Notes: a model not told the origin generated them from the letters alone. A DNA stretch of 64,000 bases from an uncultured Acidobacteriota bacterium (GCA_963713825.1 CAVQNG010000014.1:1-64000), one strand, 5' to 3'. Positions 281 through 13,146 are shown, counted from the stretch's first letter. A program made the numbers and translations.

Positions 281-1417
281 GTGAAAAGGGATTACGAAGC
301 GATCGTCTTGGGCCTTGGCGGTATCGGTAGCGGCGCGTTGTATTGGCTCAGTCGCAGACTCGGTGGCGAGGTTTTGGGCCTTGAACAGTTCGAGCTCGGT
401 CACGACCGGGGCGGCTCGCAGGATCACTCGAGGATCATCCGCTACACCTACCATTTGCCGGAATACGTTCGTTTGGCAGCTGGTGCCTACGACGCCTGGG
501 AGGTAGTGGAGGAAGAGAGCGGCGAGCAACTCGTGGTGCGCTGCGGCGGGTTGGATCTCTTTCCCGAAGGCGGATCGGAGTCGATCATCGACTACAGCGG
601 CAGTCTTGAAGCCGTCGGCGTGCCGTTCGAGCTGCTGAGCGCTGGGCAGGTCCGTCGACGCTGGCCGCAGTTCCGCATCGAGGACAACACCGAGGGCCTC
701 TACCAAGCCGACGGTGGCTTCGTGAAGGCTGCCGAAGGTAATGCCGCTCACCAGCGATTAGCTCGCCAACGGGGTGCCACCCTGCTGCCGGGTGTCGCAG
801 TTTGGGACATCTCGGAGCGAGACGGCGAGTACGAGATCAGTACAAAGCAGGGGACCTTCACGACCGCCAGGTTGGTGATGGCTTCCGGTGCGTGGACCCG
901 TTCTCTTCTGAGCCATTTCGAAGTGCAGTTGCCACTGCGGGTGACCCAGGAGCAGGTGACCTACTTCCATCCGACCGACCCGCAAGCCTTCGAGCCGGAC
1001 CGATTCCCGATCTGGATCTGGAACGACGAGCCCACCTACTACGGTTTTCCACTGCATCCGAGCGACGGCGCGAAGGTCGCCCAGGACCTCGGTGGAGGAG
1101 AGGTCACCGTCGATAGCCGCACCTTCGAACCGAACGCCGAGAACCTCGCCGGCGTCCAACGCTTCTGCCGCAAGCACCTGTCCGCCCTCGAGCAGGTCAA
1201 CTACACCAAGACCTGCCTCTACACCCTCACCCCCGACCGCGACTTCCTGCTCGACGCCGTGCCCGGCCAGACCGGCGTCTGGTTCGCCATCGGCGCCGGC
1301 CACGCCTTCAAGTTCGCTTCCCATCTAGGCCGCATCCTGAGCGAGCTCGCCCTCGATGGCACGACACTGGCGGACATCGACCCCTTCAAGACCGATAGAG
1401 AGCGACTCCGAGTCTGA
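281..1417 (+). CDS. solA: N-methyl-L-tryptophan oxidase / monomeric sarcosine oxidase family flavoprotein
   Basis: GTG at 281 after a GGAGGA RBS; IVLGLGGIGSG FAD motif, GSxDHSRIIR, covalent-FAD Cys motif KTCLYT, GHAFKFA. Confidence 0.85.
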   Translation: MKRDYEAIVLGLGGIGSGALYWLSRRLGGEVLGLEQFELGHDRGGSQDHSRIIRYTYHLPEYVRLAAGAYDAWEVVEEESGEQLVVRCGGLDLFPEGGSESIIDYSGSLEAVGVPFELLSAGQVRRRWPQFRIEDNTEGLYQADGGFVKAAEGNAAHQRLARQRGATLLPGVAVWDISERDGEYEISTKQGTFTTARLVMASGAWTRSLLSHFEVQLPLRVTQEQVTYFHPTDPQAFEPDRFPIWIWNDEPTYYGFPLHPSDGAKVAQDLGGGEVTVDSRTFEPNAENLAGVQRFCRKHLSALEQVNYTKTCLYTLTPDRDFLLDAVPGQTGVWFAIGAGHAFKFASHLGRILSELALDGTTLADIDPFKTDRERLRV

Positions 1418-1620
1418 GCGGAGTCGATCTCCGCCTCCCGCTAGTCAGGCGAAGGGTTCGCTACCCTGCCCTGGCGAGGAATGTCTAGTCTCGTCAGGAC
1501 ATCCTCAAATGGATAGGCAACTTCCTGAATTCCTCACAGCCGAACCGCATCTATCAGGGAACTGGAAGTTTCTTGTCACGTTTGTGTCCGTGTAGCTACT
1601 CATATAGGGATGTAGAAGCG

Positions 1621-1732
1621 CCTCGACAAAGGCACACCTGGGAAAACCCAGGGCCGCAAAGCCACGGGTCCTCGTCTCTTTCGCGACGGAAACCCGCCAC
1701 GAAGGACCCAAGACCGCCGGGCTGCCGAAGGG
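1621..1732 (+). ncRNA. Cyclic di-GMP-I (GEMM-I) riboswitch with extended P3
   Basis: CGACAAAGGCACACC-P2-GGGCCGCAAAGCCACGGGTC...GACCGCCGGGCTGCCGAAGG matches the GEMM-I consensus; P1 CCTCG/CGAAGG; lies in the 5' UTR of 1778..3694. Confidence 0.85.
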
Positions 1733-1777
1733 TGAAAGGGAACTCTGTTTCTGAAACGGCATGGGGAGGACGGTGCG

Positions 1778-3694
1778 ATGAAGAAGCTGAAGAATGAGCT
1801 CGCGGTGATGACGGTGCTGATCCTGTTGAGTGCCTCGACCCTTCTTGGCGCCGAGGGTCCCTGGGAGCCGGCTGGACTCCAGGGCAACCACATTTGGGCA
1901 CTCGAGACCAGCCCCACAGGTGTGATGTTGGCGGGTACTGCCTTTGCGTCCGCCAACAAGATCTTTCGCAGTTCCGATTATGGTCTCACTTGGACCGAAG
2001 CCACTGGACTGCCCGGGTCTGAGATCTGGGGTATCGAGTTCGATCCGTCGAACGAGTCGATCGTCTATGCCGCGCTGAACGGCGCCGGTGTGTTCAAGAG
2101 CCTGGATGGCGGCGCGAGTTGGTCCTGGTCGAACCTCAACGGCCAGATCTGGCAGATTGCCGTTTCGCCGACTCATCCCGGCGTCGTGTACGTCGCGAGC
2201 CAGACGGGAGGCGTATTCAAGAGTGAAGATGCCGGCGACAATTGGCTGCTTCAGGATCTTGGCTCGGTGAACAACGCGACCGCGATTGCCGTGGACCCGA
2301 CAGATCCCGATATAGCCTGGGCCGGCACGCCGTTTTGGGGACTCTTCAAGACCACCAACGGGGGTTTGACCTGGTTCGAGGTCAACTCCGGGCTCGAGCT
2401 CGGCTCCGCCAGTTTTGCGGACATAAGGAGCTTCCTCATTGACCCGTTGTCCCCGATGACGGTCTACGCCGGGGAATTCTGGAATGGCGTTTTCAAGAGC
2501 CTGGATGGCGGCGTTACCTGGTTCAAGCCTGACCCGAGCCTCTTTGCGACGGTCCTTTCGATCGAGTTGTCAGGCTTCGATCTCTACATCATCAATACCT
2601 TCGACGATGACGGCAATCCCGCCTATCGCAGTAGCGATGCAGGATTGACATGGGAACCGCTACCCAGACAGGCAGGGCTTTCGGGGAGAATCTGGCCCCG
2701 ATCTCTGTCGGTGATTCCGGGCGCAGTGCTCATCGGCACCGATCCTTTTCCGAATGAAGGCGGCATCTACAGTTGGCAGCTCGCCGACGCCGATGCCGAC
2801 GGCGTAATGGACGATGTCGATAACTGTCCCTTCACACCCAACCCGGGCCAGGTCGACTCGGACGGTGACACCGAAGGCGACCTCTGCGATGCGTGTCCAG
2901 GGGATCCCGCACAGATGTGTAATCCGGGGGGATCCACAGCCGCCGAGATACCAGCGGATGAAGGTGGCTCGCTCCAGACACCGGATGGCGCCGTGACGCT
3001 CGACATCGCCCCCGGCGACCTCACCGAGGACAGCACCTTGTCGATCACGGAGGTGGCCCCGACCGATCCGATAGCGGATCTGGTCTTGGACGACGGCAAC
3101 GCCAGCGGCCTGCCACTGGCCACCTATGTCTTCGAACCGGATGGTCTTGAATTCAGCAGCCCAGTCTCTCTCGAAGTCATAGTCGACGTCTCGACTCTGA
3201 ACCGTGGGCAGAGAGCGAGAATCGATCTCTATCTGTATTCGGATACCGACGCGGACGGAGTCGAGGACAGCTACGTCAGTCTGGGCGCGACCTGCACGGT
3301 GGTAGAGGACCCGGCAGAGACATTCACGGCCACGTGCACCGCCGAGCTCGCCCACCTGTCGATCTATTCGCTGATCGCCCCACTCGATAGCGACGGTGAC
3401 GAGGTACCAGATCAGTTCGGTTCCGTGGCGGATGCCTGTCCAGCAACGATGATTCCCGAGAGCGTGCCGCTCGTGCTTCTGAGGGTCAATCGATTCGCCT
3501 TGGCGGATGCTGACGCGGTGTTCGATACGACCAACCCTCGGCAGGGTAGGCGCACGCTGACCTATTCGACGGACGACACGGCCGGCTGCTCGTGTGAGCA
3601 GATCATCGAGGCTCTCGAGTTGGGCCTCGGGCAATCGAGATTCGGATGTAGCAACAGCGTCATGAAGAACTGGGTGGCCAGAGTGAGCCAATAG
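1778..3694 (+). CDS. Secreted BNR/VPS10-like beta-propeller protein with thrombospondin type-3 repeats, a ZU5-like domain and a Cys-containing C-terminal domain
   Basis: Signal peptide; repeated FKSxDGGxTW BNR boxes; DADGVMDDVDNCPFTPNPGQVDSDGD (TSP3); FEPDGLEFSSPV...HLSIYSL (ZU5-like); GGAGGA RBS. Confidence 0.8.
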   Translation: MKKLKNELAVMTVLILLSASTLLGAEGPWEPAGLQGNHIWALETSPTGVMLAGTAFASANKIFRSSDYGLTWTEATGLPGSEIWGIEFDPSNESIVYAALNGAGVFKSLDGGASWSWSNLNGQIWQIAVSPTHPGVVYVASQTGGVFKSEDAGDNWLLQDLGSVNNATAIAVDPTDPDIAWAGTPFWGLFKTTNGGLTWFEVNSGLELGSASFADIRSFLIDPLSPMTVYAGEFWNGVFKSLDGGVTWFKPDPSLFATVLSIELSGFDLYIINTFDDDGNPAYRSSDAGLTWEPLPRQAGLSGRIWPRSLSVIPGAVLIGTDPFPNEGGIYSWQLADADADGVMDDVDNCPFTPNPGQVDSDGDTEGDLCDACPGDPAQMCNPGGSTAAEIPADEGGSLQTPDGAVTLDIAPGDLTEDSTLSITEVAPTDPIADLVLDDGNASGLPLATYVFEPDGLEFSSPVSLEVIVDVSTLNRGQRARIDLYLYSDTDADGVEDSYVSLGATCTVVEDPAETFTATCTAELAHLSIYSLIAPLDSDGDEVPDQFGSVADACPATMIPESVPLVLLRVNRFALADADAVFDTTNPRQGRRTLTYSTDDTAGCSCEQIIEALELGLGQSRFGCSNSVMKNWVARVSQ

Positions 3695-3724
3695 TAGATC
3701 TGACCGCCGTAACTTGACCTGAGT

Positions 3725-3753
3725 CCGGGCCGCGTGCCCGGCCTATTTTCTTT
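3725..3753 (+). terminator. Probable intrinsic terminator
   Basis: CCGGGC-cgcgt-GCCCGG hairpin followed by ctattttcttt, downstream of the 3694 stop. Confidence 0.45.
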
Positions 3754-3911
3754 GGAGTCGATCTACCGTCGGTGGCCAAAGGCCACGGACCGCGTCTCCG
3801 CCGAAGATCTTATCTATAGCGTTCCAGCTATATCTCCTACCCGCGAAGATGGGTTGACGACTACCTTGCGGGGTATGTCGCGCTTGTAAGGTTTCTGCTA
3901 GGAAGGTCATA

Positions 3912-3996
3912 CAGAGAAAAGGGCAAACCTGCCGTGAGGCAGGGGCGCAAAGCCACGGGTCCGGGCGAAGCTCGACCGAGACCGCCGGGCTGCCAC
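3912..3996 (+). ncRNA. Cyclic di-GMP-I (GEMM-I) riboswitch upstream of the ECF sigma gene
   Basis: AAAAGGGCAAACCTGCC-GTGA-GGCAGGGGCGCAAAGCCACGGGTC...GAGACCGCCGGGCTGCC: GNRA-capped P2, GCAAAGCC junction and GCCGGGCTGCC 3' strand; P1 is weak. Confidence 0.88.
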
Positions 3997-4053
3997 GAGC
4001 GTCGCTAGCCGATGGAGTCGAGTGACTCCACCGAAGCGGGGGAGTTTGCACGG

Positions 4054-4896
4054 ATGGGTGTGACCTCCAGGCTCATCGAGTGGGTTCCAGGCCTTCCGGC
4101 GAAGGAGATGGAGGAGGCGTGGGATCGGTTTCTCGGTGAGTACGCTGGCCTCATCCTCCAGGTCGTTCACCTCTTCGAGCGCGACCCGGACCGGGTCGAC
4201 GACTGCTTCCTCTTCGTCTGCGAGCAGCTGAAGAAGGATCGGCTCCGAAGGCTGCGCCGATTCGAAGCCAACGGCACAGCGACGTTCTCCACCTGGCTGC
4301 GGGCCGTGGTGCGCAATCTCTGTCTCGACTGGCGCCGCCAGCGATTCGGTCGCCCCCGGATCTTCCGCTCGATCGCCCGCCTCCCCGAAGTGGATCAGGA
4401 GGTCTTCCGCTGTATCTACTTTCGAAAGCTGAGCGAGAACGAGACCCTCCATACGGTCAGGGCGCTCCACCCGGCCCTGGATCGCGAAGCGCTCGCTGCG
4501 AGCCTTGTGCGCATTCGCGGCAGCCTCAGCCCGCACCAGTCGTGGCTGTTGGCCTCGCGCAATCCCTACATGGAATCGCTGTCTCGGAACGCGGATGTCT
4601 CCAAGGGAGACGCTCGGGAAACGGAGCTACCCGATCCCGATCCGGATCCCGAGACCGAGGCAGCCGGCCGCGAGTTTCTCCGTGCCCTTCGCCGGGCGAT
4701 GGAAGACCTGCCACCAGGGGACCGGCTGCTACTGCGGCTTCGCTTCGAGCAGGAGCTGACCCTGGAGGAGATCGCAGAGCTGATGCAGCTGGGCAGTGCG
4801 GTCAAGGCACAAAGATACCTACAACAGGTGCTTTCGAAGACTAGAGAGCAACTCCTGATGCAGGGAATCGAGTCCGTGTCCGTGAAAGACAAGTAG
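4054..4896 (+). CDS. ECF-type RNA polymerase sigma-70 factor (long form)
   Basis: Region 2 (AWDRFLGEY...FSTWLRAVVRNLCLDWRR) and region 4 (LPPGDRLLLRLRFEQELTLEEIA). ATG 4054 has a GGGGAG RBS; alternative start at 4012. Confidence 0.9.
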   Translation: MGVTSRLIEWVPGLPAKEMEEAWDRFLGEYAGLILQVVHLFERDPDRVDDCFLFVCEQLKKDRLRRLRRFEANGTATFSTWLRAVVRNLCLDWRRQRFGRPRIFRSIARLPEVDQEVFRCIYFRKLSENETLHTVRALHPALDREALAASLVRIRGSLSPHQSWLLASRNPYMESLSRNADVSKGDARETELPDPDPDPETEAAGREFLRALRRAMEDLPPGDRLLLRLRFEQELTLEEIAELMQLGSAVKAQRYLQQVLSKTREQLLMQGIESVSVKDK

Positions 4897-4922
4897 CCGG
4901 GAGCGAAGACTCCGGGCCGGGT

Positions 4923-5681
4923 ATGAGCGAAATGATCGACGAATCGGAAATCACCAGGCAGATTCCCCTCGTTGCGGGTTCGGGTAGTCGAAGAGGCGCA
5001 CACTGTCCGACGTCGGGGCAGCTGGCGACCTATGCCGACACACGACTGGATGCGACCGCGCGGGCAAGAGCGGAGGAGCACCTCGCCGATTGCACCTACT
5101 GCCTGGGGCAGGTCGGGTTTCTGATTCGCCAGTCGCGGGAGAGCCAAGCAGAGTCGGTACCTGCGCGTCTGATGGATGCGGTTCGGGAGAGGCCTGGCCG
5201 CCGGTTCGGGCTTGTCCCGGTGCCGGCGCTGGCGGCCATGGCGGCGACGGCCCTTCTGTTGGCTGTCGGGGTCGCCTGGCAGCCGGACCGTGGCCTGACA
5301 CCTTTTGGCCCGGCCCATCCGGGTTCCGACAGCACAGGCCAGACCTCCTCGGGAGCACCGATGGATCGCACGCTCCGCAATGGTGCCGTCACCACGGCCC
5401 CGCCTCGGATTTTGCAGCCGGGCGACGGAGAGATCGTTGGCCGGCTGCCTCTGGAGATCCGCTGGTCGACCTCACCTGGGGCCCTTCAGTACTCCGTCCA
5501 GGTGCTGAGCCTCGCCGGTGATCTGGTCTGGGAGGGCTCGAGCGCCGGGGAAGAGACCTTGGTTCCGTCGGAGGTGATACTCGAGCCAGGACAGAGGTAC
5601 TACGTCTGGGTGGAAGCGCGGCTTCCCTCTGGCGCTGCTTCGAAGTCCGATGCCGTGGCCTTTCGCGTAGCTCCCGATTGA
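4923..5681 (+). CDS. Zinc-finger (zf-HC2) membrane anti-sigma factor with extracytoplasmic Ig/Fn-like C-terminal domain
   Basis: HCP...HLADCTYC (HxxxCxxC) motif, one TM helix (ALAAMAATALLLAVGVAW), beta-rich C-terminus (LEPGQRYYVWVEA); directly after the sigma gene. Confidence 0.82.
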   Translation: MSEMIDESEITRQIPLVAGSGSRRGAHCPTSGQLATYADTRLDATARARAEEHLADCTYCLGQVGFLIRQSRESQAESVPARLMDAVRERPGRRFGLVPVPALAAMAATALLLAVGVAWQPDRGLTPFGPAHPGSDSTGQTSSGAPMDRTLRNGAVTTAPPRILQPGDGEIVGRLPLEIRWSTSPGALQYSVQVLSLAGDLVWEGSSAGEETLVPSEVILEPGQRYYVWVEARLPSGAASKSDAVAFRVAPD

Positions 5682-5708
5682 CGGGGGCCACGTTCGATCG
5701 GGGAAGAC

Positions 5709-8651
5709 ATGATTCCCCAGTACACTGTTTGGGTGCCCGTGATTTCGCTGGCGCTGATCTTGGCGCCGGGGATCCTCGCGGCCACGGAATCCGGCACAGC
5801 CGACGAGCTGCTGGCGCAAGCGCGAGAGCTCTATACGCAAGAAGGGCCAGCACCGGCCCTGCCGGTTTACGAGCGGGCCCTCTCCCAATACCGCGCAGAT
5901 GAGAACCGTTTGGGCGAAGCGATCACTCTCGGGTTGATTGGCAACTGTTACAAGCGCTTGGGGGACTACGACCGATCCGGTGAGCTATTGGAACAGGCGC
6001 TGGCCATGAAGCGGGAGCTTGGGGACCGTCTCGAGGAGGGCAAGACGCTCAGCCATCTTGGTCTTCTCTCATGGGAGAAGGCTGACTACCCAGAGGCGAT
6101 CCAGTATTTCGAAGATGCGATCGCCGTCGGAAAGGATCTCGGAGACGCAAGGCTCGAAGGATCGGCTCTCAACAATCTGAGCCTGGTCTATGACGAGCTG
6201 GGTGACTACGAGCGCAGCCTGCAGCAATACGACGAGGTACTGGAGCTCTATCGCCGCACGGACTTTCCGCGGGGAGAAAGCGACACCCTGGGCAACATCG
6301 GCGGGGTCTATCTCCTCCTGGGGCGCTACCGGGAGGCCATGGGCTTCTACGAGCAGGCCCTGGCGATCAGTGAGCGCCTCGAGTCCAAACCGTCCATGAG
6401 CCAGGATCTCGGCAATCTGGCTCTCTGCCATCTCGGCCTGGGTGAGATCTCAGAAGCCATCGAGAGGTTCGATCGCGCCCTGTCTCTGGCACGACAAACA
6501 GGGCTCGAGAAGGAAACAGCCGACTGGCTGAAGGGCAAGGGTGACGTCTATCACGACATCGGACGCCACAGCGAAGGTCTGGAGCTCTACCGCCAAGCGC
6601 TGGCATCCTACGAGTCCGCCGGGTTGAAGAGGGAGCTGGTCGAGGCTCTCAACGAGCTGGCCACCATTCACCTTCAGTTGGGAGACCTGGCCTCGGCAGA
6701 GGAGTACCAGCGCCGATCGCTCGAGCTGGCGCGCTCCATCGGCTTCACGCGAGGAGTCGTAGCGAGTCAGGTGGCCCTGGGAGAGCTGGAGTGGCGCCGC
6801 CGGCGGTACAGAGAGGCCGCGACCTTCCTCCGCGAGGCTCTCGAAGGTGCTCTCGCGATCGACGATCAGAACCTCGCTTACTCGTGCAGGACACAGCTCG
6901 TCCTCACCCTCAGAGACCAAGGAGAGCTCGAAGAGGCCCTGACACTAGCCAGCAGCGAAATCGAGACGGTGCGAGGGCTCGAATCGAAGCTGCATACGGC
7001 GGAGGCGCTTTACGCTTTGGGCAATATCGAGCTGTTGACCGGCAAGCCGGAGCAAGCGCTAGTGCACTTCCGAGAGGGTTCAGGTCTACTCGCTGGCCTG
7101 GGTGAGCCGGACATCGCATGGCGGCTGGCCCACGGCCAGGGAAAAGCCCTCGAGGAGCTCGGTCGAGACGAAGAAGCCGTCTCCGGTTACTCCGAGGCCG
7201 TCCGGCTTATCGAGACGGTTCGCGGGCGTCTGCGCGAAGAACGGTTTCGCTCGGGGTATATCGAGGACAAGTACGAAGCCTACGTCGACCTCTCCCGACT
7301 GCTGGTGCGACTGGATCGGCCGGAAGAGGCCTTCTCGTACGCCGAGAAGCTCAGGGCGCGCAGTTACCTCGATCTTCTGTCAGAAGCATCGATCCCCAGC
7401 CTCACTGAGCAGGAAAAGCGGCGAGAGATGGAGCTGCGCCAGCGCATCCGCGGGCTTCAGGAGAGCCTGGGAGAAGAAGCCAAATCCGAGTTCGAGCCAC
7501 GTCGGCGTGCGATGGCGCTTTTCGCAGCGGAGCTGGAACAGGCCGAGCGGGAATACGCAGCCTTTCTCTCCGATCTCAGGACTGTAGACCCGGATCTGGC
7601 TGCTACCTGGTCGTTGTCGGTACCCGAAGCCGTCACGATTCGTGAGGCGTTGCCAGCCGGTACGGCCCTGGTGGAATTCGTGGTGGGCAGGGACCAGGTG
7701 CTGGTCTTTCTGCTCAGCGCCGAGCGCTTGGAGACCCATGTCGCGCCACTGTCCCGGAGGGACCTGCAGACCAAGGTGGAGCTGACTCGACAGTTGATCC
7801 AGAAACGGGATAACGATGACTGGCGATTCCCAGCAGCGAGTCTCGCTGCGGCGCTGATCGAGCCCCTCGAAGCCGAAGGGTGGCTGGATGCGGTTCAGCA
7901 TCTCTATCTGGTGCCGCACGACACGCTGCACTATCTGCCATTTGCAGTGCTACCTCGAGGACCCGAAGGCCGAGTCCTGGTCCAGGACTACCAACTGACC
8001 TACCTGCCGTCGGCAGGGACACTCGTCTATCCACGAGCAGGGGGGGCAGCGGCCAAGGGCCTCCTCGTCCTGGCGCCGATGAGCAGTCGATTGAAGCACA
8101 CCGTGGCCGAAGCCCGCGCGGTGGCCGAAGCCTTTCCTGACAGTAACAAGGTCCTCATGGGAGACCAGGCCACGGAGAGCTCTTTCAAAGCCCTTTCCAA
8201 GGATTTCAAGGTTCTCCACCTAGCTACGCACAGCACCTGGAATCGACTGAATCCGCTGCTGTCCGCTCTGCAGCTGGAGGCGGGTGACGGCGAGGATGGT
8301 CGGCTCGAGGTGCACGAGGTTCTTGATCTCCGCCTGGGCGCCGATCTCGTGACCCTGAGTGCTTGTGAGACGGCGCTTGGCAGCGGGTATTTCGGCCAGA
8401 CCCCGGTCGGAGATGATTTCGTGGGGCTGACCAGAGCCTTCCTTCATTCCGGAAGTCGTGCTGTTCTGGCCAGCCTCTGGGAAGTCGACGATCGATCGAC
8501 GCTCGATCTCATGCGGAGCTTCTATCGACAGAGGGATGAGGAGGGTCCCGCTTTGGCACTGGCCGAGGCGCAACGCCTGATGCTCGCGGATTCAGGCAAG
8601 TCGGACCCATACAAATGGGCCGCTTTCGTCGTCGTGGGGCCCTCGCCATGA
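5709..8651 (+). CDS. TPR-repeat CHAT-domain (caspase-HetF family) cysteine protease with N-terminal signal peptide
   Basis: Multiple 40-aa TPRs, then a CHAT domain with His (VLHLATHS) and Cys (LVTLSACETA) dyad, ASLWEVDD and PYKWAAF motifs. Confidence 0.92.
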   Translation: MIPQYTVWVPVISLALILAPGILAATESGTADELLAQARELYTQEGPAPALPVYERALSQYRADENRLGEAITLGLIGNCYKRLGDYDRSGELLEQALAMKRELGDRLEEGKTLSHLGLLSWEKADYPEAIQYFEDAIAVGKDLGDARLEGSALNNLSLVYDELGDYERSLQQYDEVLELYRRTDFPRGESDTLGNIGGVYLLLGRYREAMGFYEQALAISERLESKPSMSQDLGNLALCHLGLGEISEAIERFDRALSLARQTGLEKETADWLKGKGDVYHDIGRHSEGLELYRQALASYESAGLKRELVEALNELATIHLQLGDLASAEEYQRRSLELARSIGFTRGVVASQVALGELEWRRRRYREAATFLREALEGALAIDDQNLAYSCRTQLVLTLRDQGELEEALTLASSEIETVRGLESKLHTAEALYALGNIELLTGKPEQALVHFREGSGLLAGLGEPDIAWRLAHGQGKALEELGRDEEAVSGYSEAVRLIETVRGRLREERFRSGYIEDKYEAYVDLSRLLVRLDRPEEAFSYAEKLRARSYLDLLSEASIPSLTEQEKRREMELRQRIRGLQESLGEEAKSEFEPRRRAMALFAAELEQAEREYAAFLSDLRTVDPDLAATWSLSVPEAVTIREALPAGTALVEFVVGRDQVLVFLLSAERLETHVAPLSRRDLQTKVELTRQLIQKRDNDDWRFPAASLAAALIEPLEAEGWLDAVQHLYLVPHDTLHYLPFAVLPRGPEGRVLVQDYQLTYLPSAGTLVYPRAGGAAAKGLLVLAPMSSRLKHTVAEARAVAEAFPDSNKVLMGDQATESSFKALSKDFKVLHLATHSTWNRLNPLLSALQLEAGDGEDGRLEVHEVLDLRLGADLVTLSACETALGSGYFGQTPVGDDFVGLTRAFLHSGSRAVLASLWEVDDRSTLDLMRSFYRQRDEEGPALALAEAQRLMLADSGKSDPYKWAAFVVVGPSP

Positions 8652-8749
8652 AATCCGAAGTGAATATGGGCTGGTGCGTGTCCGTGCAAGGTAATCAGGA
8701 ACGAGCGATTCCGTACCAAGAGGACATCTGATCTGAAGGAGGTCACGAC

Positions 8750-10927
8750 ATGACACGGAGAGACTCGACACTCTGCTTTTCTTCAATCGTCTTACTTCTT
8801 TTGGTCGGCGTCTTTGTGCTGAGCTCCCCGAGCCTTGCTCAGGACCCGATTCCCACCGCGGCCGATCCGTCGTCGGCCGAACAAGAGACCCTGGACCTCG
8901 AAGTCACCGTCACAGGTGACAACTTCGGCAAGGATTCAGTGGTCGAGTTTCTCATCTCCGGTACTGAAGACCCAGGTGGTATCAAGGTCAAGAAGGTCAA
9001 GTCTCTGGGCCCCCAGAAGCTCAAGGTTACGGTCGATGTCGAAGCGGACGCCGTGGTCGATGACTTCGACATCAGGGTCATGAGCCGCGGCCGCACCGGC
9101 AAAGGCACCGAGCTGTTCCGCGTCCTCGAGAAGGAGCATCCCACCCAGGACACGACCCCACCGGGAGCCGTGACCGTCGACTATCTCGGAACGGAATACA
9201 ACCAGGTTTTCCTGGAGTGGATCGCCCCGGCGGACGATGGCTACGATCCTGCGAGCGGCCCGGTGTCCGGTTACGTGGCAAGGTGCGTGCCCGGCGACGT
9301 GACCTTCGACCCCCAAGTCTGGGACGAGGCCGACCATCTCAGTGGTGTGGCTTTCTGGACCGAGCCAGGATCACCTGGCACACCCGAGCAAGGCTGGGCC
9401 TACAAATGGACAGACCCGGGTTTCAGGCCGGCCTCGACCTATTCTCTCGCAATCCGAGTCGGCGACGAGGTCCCCAACGAGTCCGATATCTCCAACACGG
9501 TCACGTTCACGACGCAGCCTTACGGACCGAATCCAGACTGGGTCGTCCAGAAAGTCCCGATTCCGATCAGCGGCCTCCTCGGAAATGCGTTCGACTCGGG
9601 TGGCAATCTGGTGATCGCGGCTCTCTATCAGGATCAGATCCGCATCCTCAGCGGATCTTGGAGCGACACTGAAGGGCAGTGGCAGTGGGACTTCGAAGAT
9701 GTTCCCGGATTTGCGGACAGTTTCGCGATCGACCCCTTCGGTGTCCCGGCCTTCGCTTGGACCCAAACGCTGACTTCGACCACAGCTGACGTGCTCTACA
9801 CCTATTTCGACGGCGGAGAGTGGGCGACGGAGCTTGTGGGGAGCGCAGACGGTGACGTCAGGGGACCCGCGAGGATCGCCTTCGACCTCCTCGGCAACCC
9901 GGCGATTGCCTACTACCAATGGGACAACGCCTCGGATGGAGGGGTCAAGCTGGCACGCCGGAGCATTTCTGGTCAGTGGAGCATCGAGGTCGCGGATCTT
10001 TTCGAGGCATCAAGAGAAGGGCTGGTCGATCTGGCTTTCGATCCCGCCGGGAATCCTGCCATGGCTTACGCCGTGTATCCACCAGACGTCTATTGGGACA
10101 CCTACGTATTGCGGTTCGCCAGCCTCTCGGGCGGAACCTGGCAGGTCGAAGAGGTCGATGCCTCGGGCAGCTCGTATCCGAGAGGCCAGGCTGTTCAGCT
10201 GAGTTACGACGCCAGCCGTGGCGAGTTTGCGGTTCTCCATTATTCCGACTATCAGGCGATCTACTGCGAGCGAGACAACGGCAGTTGGCAGTGTGAGGAG
10301 CCGTTCGGTGGAGAGCCGCCGGACTACTCTTTTGGGACAGCCTCCCCAGACTCGATTCCGTACACTGTTCCACTCTGGCTGACCATTGACGGAGCTGGAG
10401 AGGTTTTCATCCCCTTTAACCTGGGCCGAAGCATGCGGCTCGCTCGCCGCTCTGCTGCTGCGGCCTGGAACGAAGAGTTCATCGACTCTGCGTGGTTGTG
10501 GCCCGACTTCGAGCAGGCGCCATTTAACGTCAGTGGGTTTGGCCCGTTTGTGGCCCTCGACCCGTCGGGTTCACCGACGCTCTCCTGGACGTGGAATCGT
10601 GACGACTGGCAGCCCGGAGACCTGAGTCTCTACTTCGCTTGGATGGACCCGACGGCAAATTTCTGCGGGGACGGAGTCTGCACCAGAGCGGAAACCCAGT
10701 GTGCCTGTCCGGTCGACTGTGGAGTAGTAACCCTGAGCGAGCAGGGCCTATGCTCGGACTTCAGCGACAACGATTGCGATGGCGTCATGGACTGCTCCGA
10801 CTTCGACTGCGAAGGGGATGCAGCGTGCAGCGGTAGCAGCTGCTTGCCGAAGGGGTTTTATCCCTGTTACCGCAACGATGAGTGTTGCTCCGGGATCTGC
10901 CATCCGCAGAAGCACAGCTGTAAGTAG
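8750..10927 (+). CDS. Secreted multidomain protein: Ig-like, fibronectin-III, beta-propeller, Cys-rich and cystine-knot-like tail
   Basis: AAGGAGG RBS, signal peptide, DTTPPG...LEWIAPADDG...DEVPNESDISN Fn3 motif, repeated AFDxxGNPAIAY blades, C-terminal CGDGVC/DNDCDG/CCSGIC. Confidence 0.75.
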   Translation: MTRRDSTLCFSSIVLLLLVGVFVLSSPSLAQDPIPTAADPSSAEQETLDLEVTVTGDNFGKDSVVEFLISGTEDPGGIKVKKVKSLGPQKLKVTVDVEADAVVDDFDIRVMSRGRTGKGTELFRVLEKEHPTQDTTPPGAVTVDYLGTEYNQVFLEWIAPADDGYDPASGPVSGYVARCVPGDVTFDPQVWDEADHLSGVAFWTEPGSPGTPEQGWAYKWTDPGFRPASTYSLAIRVGDEVPNESDISNTVTFTTQPYGPNPDWVVQKVPIPISGLLGNAFDSGGNLVIAALYQDQIRILSGSWSDTEGQWQWDFEDVPGFADSFAIDPFGVPAFAWTQTLTSTTADVLYTYFDGGEWATELVGSADGDVRGPARIAFDLLGNPAIAYYQWDNASDGGVKLARRSISGQWSIEVADLFEASREGLVDLAFDPAGNPAMAYAVYPPDVYWDTYVLRFASLSGGTWQVEEVDASGSSYPRGQAVQLSYDASRGEFAVLHYSDYQAIYCERDNGSWQCEEPFGGEPPDYSFGTASPDSIPYTVPLWLTIDGAGEVFIPFNLGRSMRLARRSAAAAWNEEFIDSAWLWPDFEQAPFNVSGFGPFVALDPSGSPTLSWTWNRDDWQPGDLSLYFAWMDPTANFCGDGVCTRAETQCACPVDCGVVTLSEQGLCSDFSDNDCDGVMDCSDFDCEGDAACSGSSCLPKGFYPCYRNDECCSGICHPQKHSCK

Positions 10928-10948
10928 TCGATCCGAGTTTGAGTTGGC

Positions 10949-10979
10949 AAAGGGCCGGGCTCTGTGCTCGGCCCTTTTT
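10949..10979 (+). terminator. Intrinsic terminator closing the sigma-CHAT cassette
   Basis: AAAGGGCCGGGC-tctgt-GCTCGGCCCTTTTT hairpin with U-tract just after the 10927 stop; possibly bidirectional. Confidence 0.8.
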
Positions 10980-10980
10980 G

Positions 10981-11320
10981 TCAGTTGACAGGGTCAGTTG
11001 ACTGATGCGGCCGACTCCTCCCACCCGCAGAGTTGAGCCTGTCTAACGCAGCTTGGAAAGCGGTAGCGCAGGGTGCATCGATCCTCAGCTCGGGGTCGAG
11101 GATGGAAGAGGCCCGATGGGTGCCGAGCATGTGACTGTTGTCGGAATGGGGGTGGTCGGGTGCGATGGCGTGAACGAGCTCGTGGTCAATCAGGTCCACG
11201 CGATCGAAGACCGCTATCTCGATGGCTATCGGGTCGACTTCTGCCTGAATAGGGAACGAAGTCAATGCCAGGAAAGCAGGCAGGGCACCCAGTGCGATGA
11301 GCTTGAATCTATGTCTCCGA
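10981..11320 (-). CDS. Possible small secreted hypothetical protein (apparently frameshifted)
   Basis: ORF 10981..11265 is preceded in another frame by signal-peptide-like RHRFKLIALGALL; no recognisable family; start uncertain. Confidence 0.25.
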
Positions 11321-11459
11321 GTTGGAACAGCCGATCAAAGCCTCGGCGTCAAAGGGCGAGGGTCGATACGCAGCACCCTCACTCCCGTTGGTGAGAAGAG
11401 AGAAGAATGCCTTACAAGTTCTGTTCTGAATCGGCCGACGTTGGCTAGAATCCTGCAGC

Positions 11460-13146
11460 ATGCTCCGTCTTGCACGCTTGTTGGCAGTCGCAGGATCTGC
11501 CGGACTGATCGCGATGTCTGGCTGGTCGGCCGTCCAAGCCGAATCTCCGCTCTTCAACGATTTGAGTGCAGGATCGGGTCTGGAGATCGTCACATATTCG
11601 GGCAGCGTCGAGAAGCCGCACATCCTGGAGTCGGACGGGAACGGCGTCCTGGTGCTGGACTACGACGGTGATGGGTTCCAGGATCTCTACTTCGTCGCCG
11701 CATTCAGGATTCCTCGAGACGAGGAGGCGATGGAGGAGCGGAGTGCCCTCTACCGGAATCTCGGCAACGGCACCTTCGTTGAGGTGAGCCAGCAGGCAGG
11801 TGTTGCTGCCCGGGTGTACGGCCACGGTGGCTGTGTCGGGGACTACAACGCAGATGGACTGCCCGACATCTACCTGACCGCTTACGGGGACAATATTCTC
11901 TATCGCAACAACGGCGACGGCACCTTCGAGGATGTCACCGAGGAGGCTGGTGTGGCCGAGCCGGCCTGGAGCATCGGGGCCACATTCCTCGACGCCGATG
12001 GTGACGGCGACCAGGACCTCTATGTCGGCAACTACATCGTGGCTCCATGGGAGGAGATCCTGGCGGCTCGGCGAACGCGACGCTGGCGGGGCAAGGTCGA
12101 AGTGATGGATGGGCCGCGAGGACTTGTCGAGGCGCCGAACACCTTCTACCTCAATCGCGGGTGACGGCACATTCGAGGATGCCACCGAATCGTCAGGGCT
12201 GGCGGAAGGGCGACTCGGTTACACCATGGGGGTCGTCAGCTTCGACTACGACAACGATGGCGCTCCTGACATCTACGTGGCCAACGACAGCACGGCCAAT
12301 CGGCTCTACAAGAACCACGGGGACGGCACCTTCGAGGAAGTGGGCACCTGGACCGGAAGCTCCTACAACGCCGATGGCAGGGTGCAGGGCAGCATGGGCG
12401 TGCACTACGGCGACTACGACGGTGACGGCTGGTTCGACATCGGGGTCACCAATTTCGCTCTCGACTACTACGCCCTGTACCGCAACCTGGAAGGTGAGCT
12501 GTTCCAGGACGAGTCTTTCAACTCCCAGCTCGCAGTGACGAGCTTCGCGCCTCTGGGATGGGGTGTCCTGTTCTTCGACGCGGACAACGATCGGGATGTG
12601 GATCTCTACTTCTCGAACGGGCACATCTACCCGCAAGTGGATGAGGACGATTCCCTGGGCGAGACCTACCGCCAGCACAATCAGCTGCTGCTGAACGAGG
12701 CCGGCAAGTTTCACGATGTCAGTGGCGAGGCTGGCGGTGCGTTCGAGGTGAAGCTATCGAGCAGGGGAGCTGTCTTCTTCGATCTGGAGAACGACGGTGA
12801 TCTGGATCTCGCAGTGAGTAATCAGGACGAGAAGCCCAACCTCTTCGTGAACAGCTCACCGCCCAACTCTTGGCTCCGGGTCGACCTGCGTCAAACCTCG
12901 GGCAACCACCGTCCTCTGGGCTCGAGAGTCGAGGTGGAGATCGAGGGGTCGAAGCAGATCCGCGAAGCTACTTCCGGCGGTTCGTACGCTTCGGAGCTCG
13001 ACCCACGACTCCATTTCGGTTTGGGTTCAGCAACAAAGGTCGATCGGATGTCGATTCGATGGCCGGATGGACGGCAGTCTGCATTCGTGGATCTACCAGC
13101 AAATCGGCAGGTGGTGATCTGGCGGCCGGAGGGGCAGGTCGAGTGA
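11460..13146 (+). CDS. CRTAC1-family (FG-GAP/ASPIC-UnbV) secreted protein, split by a +1 indel near 12160
   Basis: Repeated DYDGDGxxDxY and LYRNxGDGTFxDVT motifs; C-terminal GGSYAS..RLHFGLG..IRWPDG (ASPIC/UnbV). ORFs 11460..12164 and 12109..13146 join at aatcgcGggtgac. Confidence 0.88.

Follow-up and report, generated by a model that had tools for sequence, protein, structure and literature searches.

The first 64 kb of contig 14 from the genome of an uncultured sediment acidobacterium (hereafter the window; the genome has 5.4 Mb in 38 contigs and is 96% complete) carry a four-gene cassette led by a riboswitch of the cyclic di-GMP (c-di-GMP) I type. The cassette encodes, in this order, a sigma factor of the extracytoplasmic function (ECF) superfamily, an anti-sigma factor with a single transmembrane (TM) span, a putatively exported tetratricopeptide repeat (TPR)-CHAT protease and a predicted secreted protein, and ends at a terminator-like hairpin (Table 1). 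This is the gene string of the original prediction for this DNA, and every element listed there was found at or near its place. The named relatives of the window proteins were from Thermoanaerobaculia, Acidobacteriota. We consider the module best read as a split form of the DdvS/DdvA system of Myxococcus xanthus, and not as a member of the DdvA family. In the following, C plus a number is a contig of the source genome, L plus a number a related locus, and G119 a genome of the same genus.

Table 1 Positions of the cassette genes and of the associated elements in the window.
Feature	Position	Strand	Evidence
Conserved "class A" leader block TGTCACGTTTGTGTCCGTG, upstream of aptamer 1	1574-1592	+	genome-wide block search
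GEMM-I aptamer 1, long P1b insertion	1622-1730	+	RF03167 68.2 bits, E 5.4e-14; RF01051 59.5 bits (1621-1729)
Secreted BNR/Sortilin-type propeller protein with TSP3 repeat	1778-3694	+	PF15902 3.9e-12; PF02412 9.6e-07
Terminator-like hairpin with T-run, downstream of the propeller gene	3725-3751 (hairpin 3725-3741)	+	6 G-C pairs, then CCTATTTTCT
"Class C" element of the sigma operons: palindrome 3815-3832, hairpin 3836-3880	3815-3880	+	aligned cassettes
GEMM-I aptamer 2, leader of the sigma operon	3913-3998	+	RF03167 67.0 bits, E 1.2e-13; RF01051 63.9 bits (3912-3997)
Expression-platform region: hairpin GGAGTC-GAGT-GACTCC 4014-4029, Shine-Dalgarno-like GGGGGAG 4038-4044	4014-4044	+	
Sigma factor, ECF superfamily, 280 aa	4054-4896 (reading frame open from 4012)	+	TIGR02937 77.4 bits
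Anti-sigma factor: CHCC zinc-binding N-domain, one TM span, Fn3-like ectodomain	4923-5681	+	
TPR-CHAT protease	5709-8651	+	PF12770 213.5 bits vs cut-off 24, E 5.7e-63
Putative sigma-dependent promoter of the fourth gene, variant TGAAT-N16-CCGTGCAAGG	8661-8690	+	
Secreted output protein, 725 residues, no Pfam family	8750-10927	+	AlphaFold2 model, pLDDT 75.4
Terminator-like hairpin and T-run ending the operon	10957-10984 (hairpin 10957-10974)	+	

Related loci were collected as matches, in species genomes, to a sigma profile built from 27 family members, and partner genes were sought there by tblastn with five window proteins. The 46 loci were nearly all from Acidobacteriota, of several classes; one was labelled Xanthomonadales and one Gemmatimonadales. 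An anti-sigma match directly followed the sigma gene in 39 of them, and three more ended too early to judge. Of the loci, 37 had 1.5 kb or more of downstream sequence, and in 32 of these the TPR-CHAT gene came next. Twenty-five loci had a complete CHAT gene and sequence beyond it; 23 of them continued with a gene carrying the N-terminal domain of the fourth protein. Because this gene order recurs widely, we regard the cassette as a real functional unit, and we have high confidence in the four-gene module and its parts. Within a phylum sample of 401 genomes, the sigma profile gave matches at E ≤ 1e-30 in 24 genomes, belonging to 20 of 227 genera.

The source genome had four sigma loci, and each other matching genome had one. 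Its cassette was amplified to four diverged copies (contigs 14, 13, 16 and 15), one of them apparently decayed. The paralogues were 75–92% identical to the window copy in the sigma factor, 62–77% in the anti-sigma factor and 75–82% in the CHAT protein. The fourth protein diverged fastest, with 39–56% identity across most of the protein on C13 and C16. On C15 only the N-terminal 153 residues of this protein survived, with 82% identity. The C15 copy (C15:14774-20115) was spread over several frames, with a TAG interrupting the sigma gene, which points to a paralogue in decay or else to a misassembly.

ECF sigma factors have no sigma-3 domain and a short linker, and are typically under ~220 aa. 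Judged by its sequence, the sigma factor of the cassette is atypical for the group. It matched TIGR02937 over residues 21–266, above the cut-off of 42.9 bits, and Pfam r4_2 (30.3 vs a cut-off of 25.7), and fell below the cut-off of Pfam r2 (20.2 vs 24). About 90 residues separated sigma-2 from sigma-4, with no Pfam r3 match at E ≤ 0.01, and the best PDB sequence matches, over the whole length, were to the group 3 sigma factor FliA (E 6.5e-5). The predicted ECF identity is thus upheld by the TIGR02937 score and qualified by the length of the protein and of its linker. The true start is likely the ATG at 4054, because the paralogues have the N-terminus MGVTSRLIEW in common. In the protein collection the family had 756 members at E ≤ 1e-5, typically of ~280 aa. 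Three cysteines of the sigma-2 region (Cys51, Cys56 and Cys90, in DCFLFVCE and NLCLDW) were invariant in 27 family members, which is unusual for a sigma factor; they could form a redox or metal site.

The anti-sigma gene starts 26 nt downstream of the sigma gene. Its product had a TM span at residues ~95–119, a variable linker and the Fn3-like ectodomain at ~165–252. Residues C28, H53, C57, C60, R152, W181, Y190 and G199 were invariant in 26 sequences. H-x3-C-x2-C with an upstream Cys or His is the motif of zinc-binding anti-sigma (ZAS) factors. Of the predicted zf-HC2 single-TM anti-sigma factor, this motif and the one hydrophobic span were recovered, whereas the Pfam zf-HC2 model itself stayed at 17.8 bits, under its cut-off of 22.2. 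The linker was rich in Pro, Ser and Thr and very variable in length, its sole invariant residue being Arg152, ~12 residues ahead of the ectodomain. No PDB relative of the anti-sigma factor was found by sequence.

For the CHAT protein the AlphaFold2 model (predicted local distance difference test (pLDDT) 84.6, predicted TM-score (pTM) 0.80) had a TPR superhelix at residues 31–550 (~13 TPR pairs), long helices at 567–634 and the CHAT domain at 650–980. The dyad His841/Cys886 was invariant in 30/30 full-length relatives. Foldseek searches with this model gave human separases first (E 1e-17 to 1e-16, best 1.1e-17), DdvA next (8rw5, E 3e-15; 8rot_A, E 8.5e-15, TM-score 0.47/0.51) and Csx29 third (E about 1e-13). 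The PDB sequence matches of the full-length protein were generic TPR proteins. Topology and export of the window proteins were called from hydrophobicity and from the A-x-A|Q-type N-termini of orthologues. The CHAT orthologues had a basic n-region, a hydrophobic core and an A-x-A|Q-type end. Nearly all of the 36 N-termini listed were signal-peptide-like, the exceptions (L066, L093 and C15) being over-extended or truncated open reading frame (ORF) calls. The window copy was less typical, with no basic residue, yet hydrophobic. The CHAT protein is, from these features, very probably exported, and the signal-peptide TPR-CHAT protease with an intact dyad was recovered as predicted.

Action of CHAT on the anti-sigma factor was part of the original prediction, and a complex model of CHAT residues 127–980 with anti-sigma residues 120–252, supplied with our own 26-row alignments, agrees with binding between the two. 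The interface score ipSAE was 0.75, 0.74 and 0.75, vs 0.00 for the best of three controls; in calibration, the mark applied is attained by 58 of the 80 solved complexes and by 2 of the 110 mismatched pairs, counts that hold only approximately given our own alignments. The pLDDT of the partners was at least 69, and the runs agreed in at least 33% of contacts. Confident contacts were made on the anti-sigma side by the Fn3-like domain (188–201 and 227–246, including the invariant G199), and on the CHAT side by two TPR loops (325–331, 363–366), by the first CHAT helices (684–711) and by residues 846–847, just after the catalytic His841. We know of no solved complex of this kind, as DdvA has no such ectodomain; because of this, it seems unlikely that the model passed from a memorised structure. 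On the strength of the model, the CHAT protein probably binds the anti-sigma ectodomain.

In its model, the fourth protein had a signal helix, an Ig-like domain (34–126), an Fn3-like domain (143–254), a beta-propeller (264–632) and a low-confidence Cys-rich tail. The propeller was closest to the fucose-binding PLL/PHL lectins of Photorhabdus (TM-score ~0.65 on the target). The Ig-like N-domain (~95 residues, with a GR.GKGT loop) is the part kept in 23/25 loci, and the remainder varies. In other lineages (proteins P0152–P0157) it was joined to FG-GAP/VCBS propellers, and not to Fn3 and a lectin-like propeller. In hhalign, the anti-sigma ectodomain gave a weak alignment with the fourth protein, on its second (Fn3-like) domain (probability 19%). 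Homology of the ectodomain to the N-domain was rejected, since the weak match fell on the second domain instead.

Across loci, a bipartite motif GGAAA-N14-CCGTGTAA was found in the spacer that separates the CHAT gene from the fourth gene, with fixed spacing (GGAAA at +0, CCGTG at +19) and the consensus CGGAAAA-N12-13-GTCCGTGTAA. At such a distance, GGAA for the -35 and CGT for the -10 are the hallmark of ECF promoters. The pattern GGAA[AT]-N13-15-CCGTGTA[AG] occurred at 29 sites on both strands of the 590,100 bp of the 46 loci, vs 0.16 on average and never more than 1 in 50 shuffles. Seventeen sites lay in the spacer before the fourth gene (17 of 25 evaluable loci) and nine, in nine loci, either at the 3' end of the sigma gene or between it and the anti-sigma gene. 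The remaining sites were two ahead of extra downstream genes (L086, L089) and one on the opposite strand. A lineage variant, TGAA[TG]-N16-CCGTG[CA][AG]AGG, was found at the same place in C13, C16, C15 and L063. The bipartite motif is quite probably the cognate promoter of the sigma factor. Because it precedes the orthologous copies, the fourth gene is likely a sigma target.

The nine loci with a box at the sigma 3' end were L076, L078, L079, L081, L086–L088, L094 and L102. The -10 box there was translated in some genomes and lay just after the stop codon in others. The C-terminal VSVK tail of the sigma family (window 4870–4890, at 4876) coincided with the -10 box of the putative promoter, and its conservation is explained by the sigma ORF encoding VSVK where it reads through this box. 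Some Terriglobia loci (L086:14599-20752; L077:16869; L089:15577) had several consecutive genes with the Ig-like N-domain. Extra downstream promoter copies were found at L086:17906 and L089:15582 with the strict pattern, and at L077:16869 with GAAAA for GGAAA. The extra Ig-domain genes and promoter copies suggest a small regulon of variable secreted proteins.

Two c-di-GMP-I riboswitches had been predicted, and the covariance search bore this out. The Rfam matches in the window (cmscan) were exactly two, both GEMM-I-type aptamers in 5' leaders, on the same strand as their genes. Both exceeded the gathering cut-offs of RF01051 (c-di-GMP-I, 35 bits) and of RF03167 (c-di-GMP-I-GGC, 59 bits), with RF03167 as the best-scoring family. 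Aptamer 2 had non-standard pairs in P1. The GGC class is presumably named for a G-for-A change at the GCGAAg position. Here both window aptamers read GCAAAG, with A where the RF03167 consensus GCGAAg has G; all 30 aligned aptamers of the source genome likewise had A at this position. The c-di-GMP contact nucleotides G20, A47 and C92 (Vc2 numbering) are named in PMC4744006. The G-G before CAAACC, the A right after the GCGC/ACAC strand and the C in GCUGCC were invariant or nearly so in the 30 genome aptamers and were present in both window aptamers. We take these to be the contact positions, by a tentative mapping of the numbering onto the alignment. Because of the A at the variant position and the canonical contact nucleotides, both aptamers were treated as ordinary c-di-GMP-I riboswitches, an assignment read from their sequences. 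If they were GGC variants, the module would be gated by a nucleotide signal other than c-di-GMP. The RF03167 scores (68.2 and 67.0 bits), higher than those of RF01051 (59.5 and 63.9 bits), would agree with such a signal; the A in all aptamers and the canonical contacts, as we placed them, speak against it, and we consider it improbable. We know of no established ligand of the GGC class, and a literature search for what this variant binds found nothing.

GEMM-I elements were abundant in the source genome, with 31 matches over the RF01051 cut-off, and because of this abundance the two riboswitches 2 kb apart are the local norm and no special wiring. On C13 (221–17816) and C15 (7534–14859) many of them formed arrays in which each secreted-protein gene had its own aptamer. 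About 20 of the 32 ORFs downstream of the aptamers had a signal-peptide-like start, and four were the sigma paralogues. Matches of CAAAGCC outside the known aptamers were discarded as chance. Five genomes of the same genus had 3–12 matches each, and 17 of 24 further genomes of the family had at least one (a tally that includes one unpublished genome). A covariance model trained on the source-genome aptamers found GEMM-I ahead of the sigma gene in 3 of the 46 loci (44 with at least 200 nt of upstream sequence), namely in the closest relatives L061–L063; in G119 the aptamer adjoins the single sigma gene. An Rfam scan of seven distant 20-kb loci found no riboswitch (0/7) and nothing else. The riboswitch was added locally and lies outside the conserved module; of the predicted synteny, the order sigma, anti-sigma and CHAT was conserved, but its link to GEMM was confined to these few loci.

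Between aptamer and start codon, no T-run terminator was found for either aptamer. When the two leaders were folded, both as single sequences and from alignments, no clear alternative structure emerged (z-scores -1.6 and -0.5). The hairpin of the expression-platform region was kept in all five leaders aligned, two of which had both bases of one pair exchanged, and GGGGGAG lies nine bases ahead of the ATG. The riboswitch probably acts at translation or via Rho, and may work as an ON or as an OFF switch.

The upstream propeller gene encodes a protein with a signal-peptide-like N-terminus and has paralogues at C15:12643 and C16:258. It had been predicted as part of the cassette, but its protein gave no tblastn match in any of the 46 loci; the gene is a separate transcription unit outside the conserved module. 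The leaders upstream of the source-genome aptamers fell into three sequence classes, and that of the propeller gene is of class A (TTGTCACGTTTGTGTCCGTGTAGCTACT). The class A block, with up to three mismatches, occurred at 11 genome sites, 10 of them just upstream of GEMM-I aptamers. It contains a -10-like box, GTGTCCGTG, at 1584–1592. The 9-mer alone was found 49 times in the genome vs ~41 expected, about chance level. With its extension, GTGTCCGTG(T/C)A, it is the same -10-like box as in the putative promoter of the fourth gene. A role of the class A leaders as sigma promoters was rejected and kept as no more than a hint, as GGAA-like -35 elements were at inconsistent distances (17 to 19+ nt from CCGTG). 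TTGTCA-N17-TACTnn in these leaders would equally fit a housekeeping-type promoter. The propeller leader itself had the -10-like box in common with the putative sigma promoter and no well-spaced -35. The claim that the sigma factor drives both flanking surface genes is supported in part: an ECF-type promoter motif precedes the fourth gene in orthologous loci, whereas the propeller leader has only the -10-like box, and sigma control of the gene at 1778 is possible.

All sigma operons had the class C element, which lies ~70 nt upstream of some aptamers. It consists of the palindrome TATAGC-N6-GCTATA (also read ATAGCC-N4-GGCTAT) and an extended hairpin, CCTACCC...GGGGTA followed by TGTCG (hairpin sequence CCTACCCGTTnGGGTG). 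The element aligned in the four paralogous cassettes and L061–L063, and was also found ahead of the aptamers C12:671 and C30:5969. Its sites outside the window include C12:599-636, C30:6112-6149, C11:4801-4838 and L061 ~3650-3700. The hairpin loop was larger by ~24 nt in the sigma operons. The element may be an operator, a promoter region or a leader element. A sigma-70 consensus scan of 1300–11400 found no site, and exact bipartite k-mer counts in 48 regions upstream of sigma genes gave nothing consistent.

Metatranscriptome contigs from two libraries of one study had exact-match pieces in the propeller gene (1999–2235), the anti-sigma gene (5313–5561), the anti-sigma/CHAT junction (5361–5733) and the fourth gene (9035–9286). 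These pieces are a weak hint that cassette and propeller gene are expressed; they are assembled contigs, for which DNA carry-over is possible and uncovered parts carry no meaning. Downstream of the cassette, FG-GAP repeats and an ASPIC/UnbV domain (CRTAC1-like) at 11460–13146 were split over the overlapping ORFs 11460–12164 and 12109–13146, which may be a frameshift.

In M. xanthus, the ECF sigma factor DdvS is paired with DdvA, a CHCC zinc anti-sigma factor with one membrane helix and a fused periplasmic TPR-CHAT part, which was proposed to be its own site-1 protease, clipping the linker in trans before RseP (PMC11506125). By analogy, the module would most likely work like DdvA. The periplasmic TPR-CHAT protein would, as modelled, dock onto the anti-sigma ectodomain. 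On a cue, in the original prediction a ligand that the TPRs would sense, CHAT would cut the periplasmic linker, perhaps at the invariant Arg152, and the stump would become a substrate of an RseP-type site-2 protease; a Peptidase_M50 gene is present on contig 3 of the source genome (225.8 bits). From the GGAAA-N14-CCGTGTAA promoter, the freed sigma factor would transcribe the fourth gene; many relatives would have their anti-sigma and protease genes transcribed in this way as well. In the genus, the c-di-GMP-I riboswitch ahead of the sigma operon would make the amount of the whole module depend on c-di-GMP. We lean towards this explanation as a whole, that is, a split DdvS/DdvA-type module with CHAT-driven sigma release, to which the riboswitch was added in the genus. 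For CHAT as the site-1 protease of the anti-sigma factor, we see the chances as even. A further-reaching version seems doubtful to us. There, the exported CHAT would be a site-1 protease in trans, c-di-GMP would set the amount of sigma, anti-sigma and protease, and the class A genes (with GTGTCCGTG, including that at 1778) would need both freed sigma factor and c-di-GMP. This would form a feed-forward AND gate with four paralogous channels and different lectin-like outputs, and CHAT would be a free-standing ancestor or derivative of DdvA in a widespread reading of the envelope in Acidobacteriota.

Several observations count against sigma release through CHAT. The best PDB sequence match of the CHAT domain was to Csx29 chains and was weak (E 7.6e-4), DdvA gave no sequence match to the CHAT protein at E ≤ 1, and topology was a heuristic reading of hydrophobicity and N-termini. 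The linker with Arg152 is outside the confident contacts of the complex model. Residues of the modelled interface showed no greater conservation than the remainder of either protein (permutation p 0.17 for CHAT, 0.73 for the ectodomain), and with no enrichment, interface conservation was dropped as independent support of the model. The exact promoter pattern was not found in 8 of the 25 loci, the closest relatives among them, and the window holds only the variant motif with a different -35. No site of the pattern was upstream of the sigma genes in the 46 loci, and classic autoregulation was not seen. Gene content also varied: L069 had sigma and anti-sigma genes with other ORFs in place of CHAT, L097, L100 and L104 had partial sigma matches alone, with no partners, and in L103 and L106 the CHAT gene was upstream of the sigma gene. 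In this variant order (L103:3127-7661, L106:6993-10216) the TPR-CHAT gene directly adjoined the sigma gene, which in L103 was followed by a 228-aa ORF with no detectable similarity to the anti-sigma factor. For DdvA itself, CHAT proteolysis is not demonstrated, the dyad mutants having behaved as wild type, and the trigger signal is not known (PMC11506125).

The complex model supports only binding, via the folded Fn3-like domain and not via the linker. It would also fit a TPR-CHAT protein that binds the anti-sigma factor and does not cut it, as a co-sensor or guard, like RseB for RseA. The CHAT substrate would then be another exported protein, for example the fourth-gene product with its conserved Ig-like N-domain, and the sigma factor would be released by a different site-1 protease or by titration of CHAT off the anti-sigma factor. 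That the N-domain is kept in 23/25 loci and the rest of the fourth protein varies, as a docking or recognition module would, points the same way, as do the DdvA dyad mutants, described with no phenotype (PMC11506125). The invariance of the dyad in 30/30 relatives argues that protease activity matters to the module, and one Arg is invariant in the otherwise variable anti-sigma linker; we think binding with no cut rather unlikely. Cleavage of the anti-sigma linker by CHAT stays our preferred explanation of these data.

The module could, like DdvS/DdvA, sense phages and thereby activate an antiviral defence island. A CBASS/CRISPR island is under the control of this closest characterised relative (PMC11506125), and four-fold paralogues with fast-diverging outputs would fit an arms race. 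This is very unlikely, as PADLOC found no defence family on the five proteins apart from generic TPR models, the promoter motif precedes secreted Ig-like/propeller genes and not defence genes, and Rfam found nothing else in the seven 20-kb loci. Riboswitch-led secreted genes are common in the source genome, where GEMM-I precedes 31 genes, so that c-di-GMP-controlled secreted genes might merely lie beside an ordinary sigma/anti-sigma pair with no common mechanism. The recurrence of the order sigma, anti-sigma, CHAT and Ig-domain gene in several riboswitch-less classes of the phylum, and a complex model that passes its controls, make such a chance neighbourhood barely credible.

Among known sigma-release systems, RseA/DegS/RseP has a single-pass anti-sigma factor, which is cut at site 1 outside the membrane and then by an M50 site-2 protease (summarised in PMC11506125). 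The module resembles it in the single-pass anti-sigma factor and in the M50 gene of the source genome, whereas its candidate site-1 protease combines the caspase fold with a TPR array and is a product of the operon itself. In the type III-E craspase, which is cytoplasmic and RNA-guided, the TPR-CHAT protein Csx29 reportedly cleaves Csx30 and so frees the ECF-type CASP-sigma. The likeness is in the protease type and in the idea of sigma release, and Csx29 was the best PDB sequence match of the window CHAT. Unlike the module, the craspase works in the cytoplasm, guided by RNA, with neither a membrane anti-sigma factor nor a signal peptide. The Csx29 NCBIfam model NF041237 scored 56.3 bits on the window CHAT, vs a cut-off of 300, and no CRISPR or defence family was found among the cassette proteins.

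ECF54 sigma factors have CHAT, subtilase and carboxypeptidase genes in their context and are described as lacking an anti-sigma factor, with proteolytic control proposed (PMC8999054). They share with the module the genetic link of an ECF sigma factor to a CHAT-domain protein and differ in the anti-sigma factor, which here is of the ZAS type. Among GEMM-I riboswitches (RF01051), the one described here leads a sigma/anti-sigma/protease operon and has no terminator after the aptamer. Literature searches found no published c-di-GMP riboswitch ahead of an ECF sigma operon, no published GEMM in Acidobacteria and no published description of a CHAT, ECF and anti-sigma module in Acidobacteria; supplementary group tables may bear on this novelty.

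The original prediction knew of no characterised system with such wiring; DdvS/DdvA is a characterised relative (PMC11506125). Both have an ECF-type sigma factor, a CHCC anti-sigma factor with one TM span and a periplasmic TPR-CHAT part with a His-Cys dyad, and the window CHAT model matches the DdvA fold (PDB 8rot, 8rw5; E 8.5e-15). The DdvA fusion is absent here: anti-sigma factor and protease are separate genes with their own starts, the protease with a signal peptide to itself, and the only ectodomain of the anti-sigma factor is the Fn3-like one of ~90 residues. A conserved fourth gene follows, the cassette proteins have no matches to defence families, and in the genus the module is riboswitch-led. 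It is found in Acidobacteriota, whereas the fused forms were reported only from Myxococcota and one Comamonas (PMC11506125). New is thus a split, exported-protease DdvA-type ECF switch with a candidate promoter and output, riboswitch-led and four-fold in one genus. In the split form, protease and substrate are separate soluble pieces, with a modelled docking surface and one invariant linker Arg, and a periplasmic caspase-like site-1 cut is therefore testable in vitro. The promoter motif is a ready reporter and a route to regulon definition in a poorly studied phylum, and suggests that the output is secreted Ig/propeller proteins. Through the riboswitch, c-di-GMP, a signal of surface lifestyle, would be tied to an ECF pathway at the RNA level.

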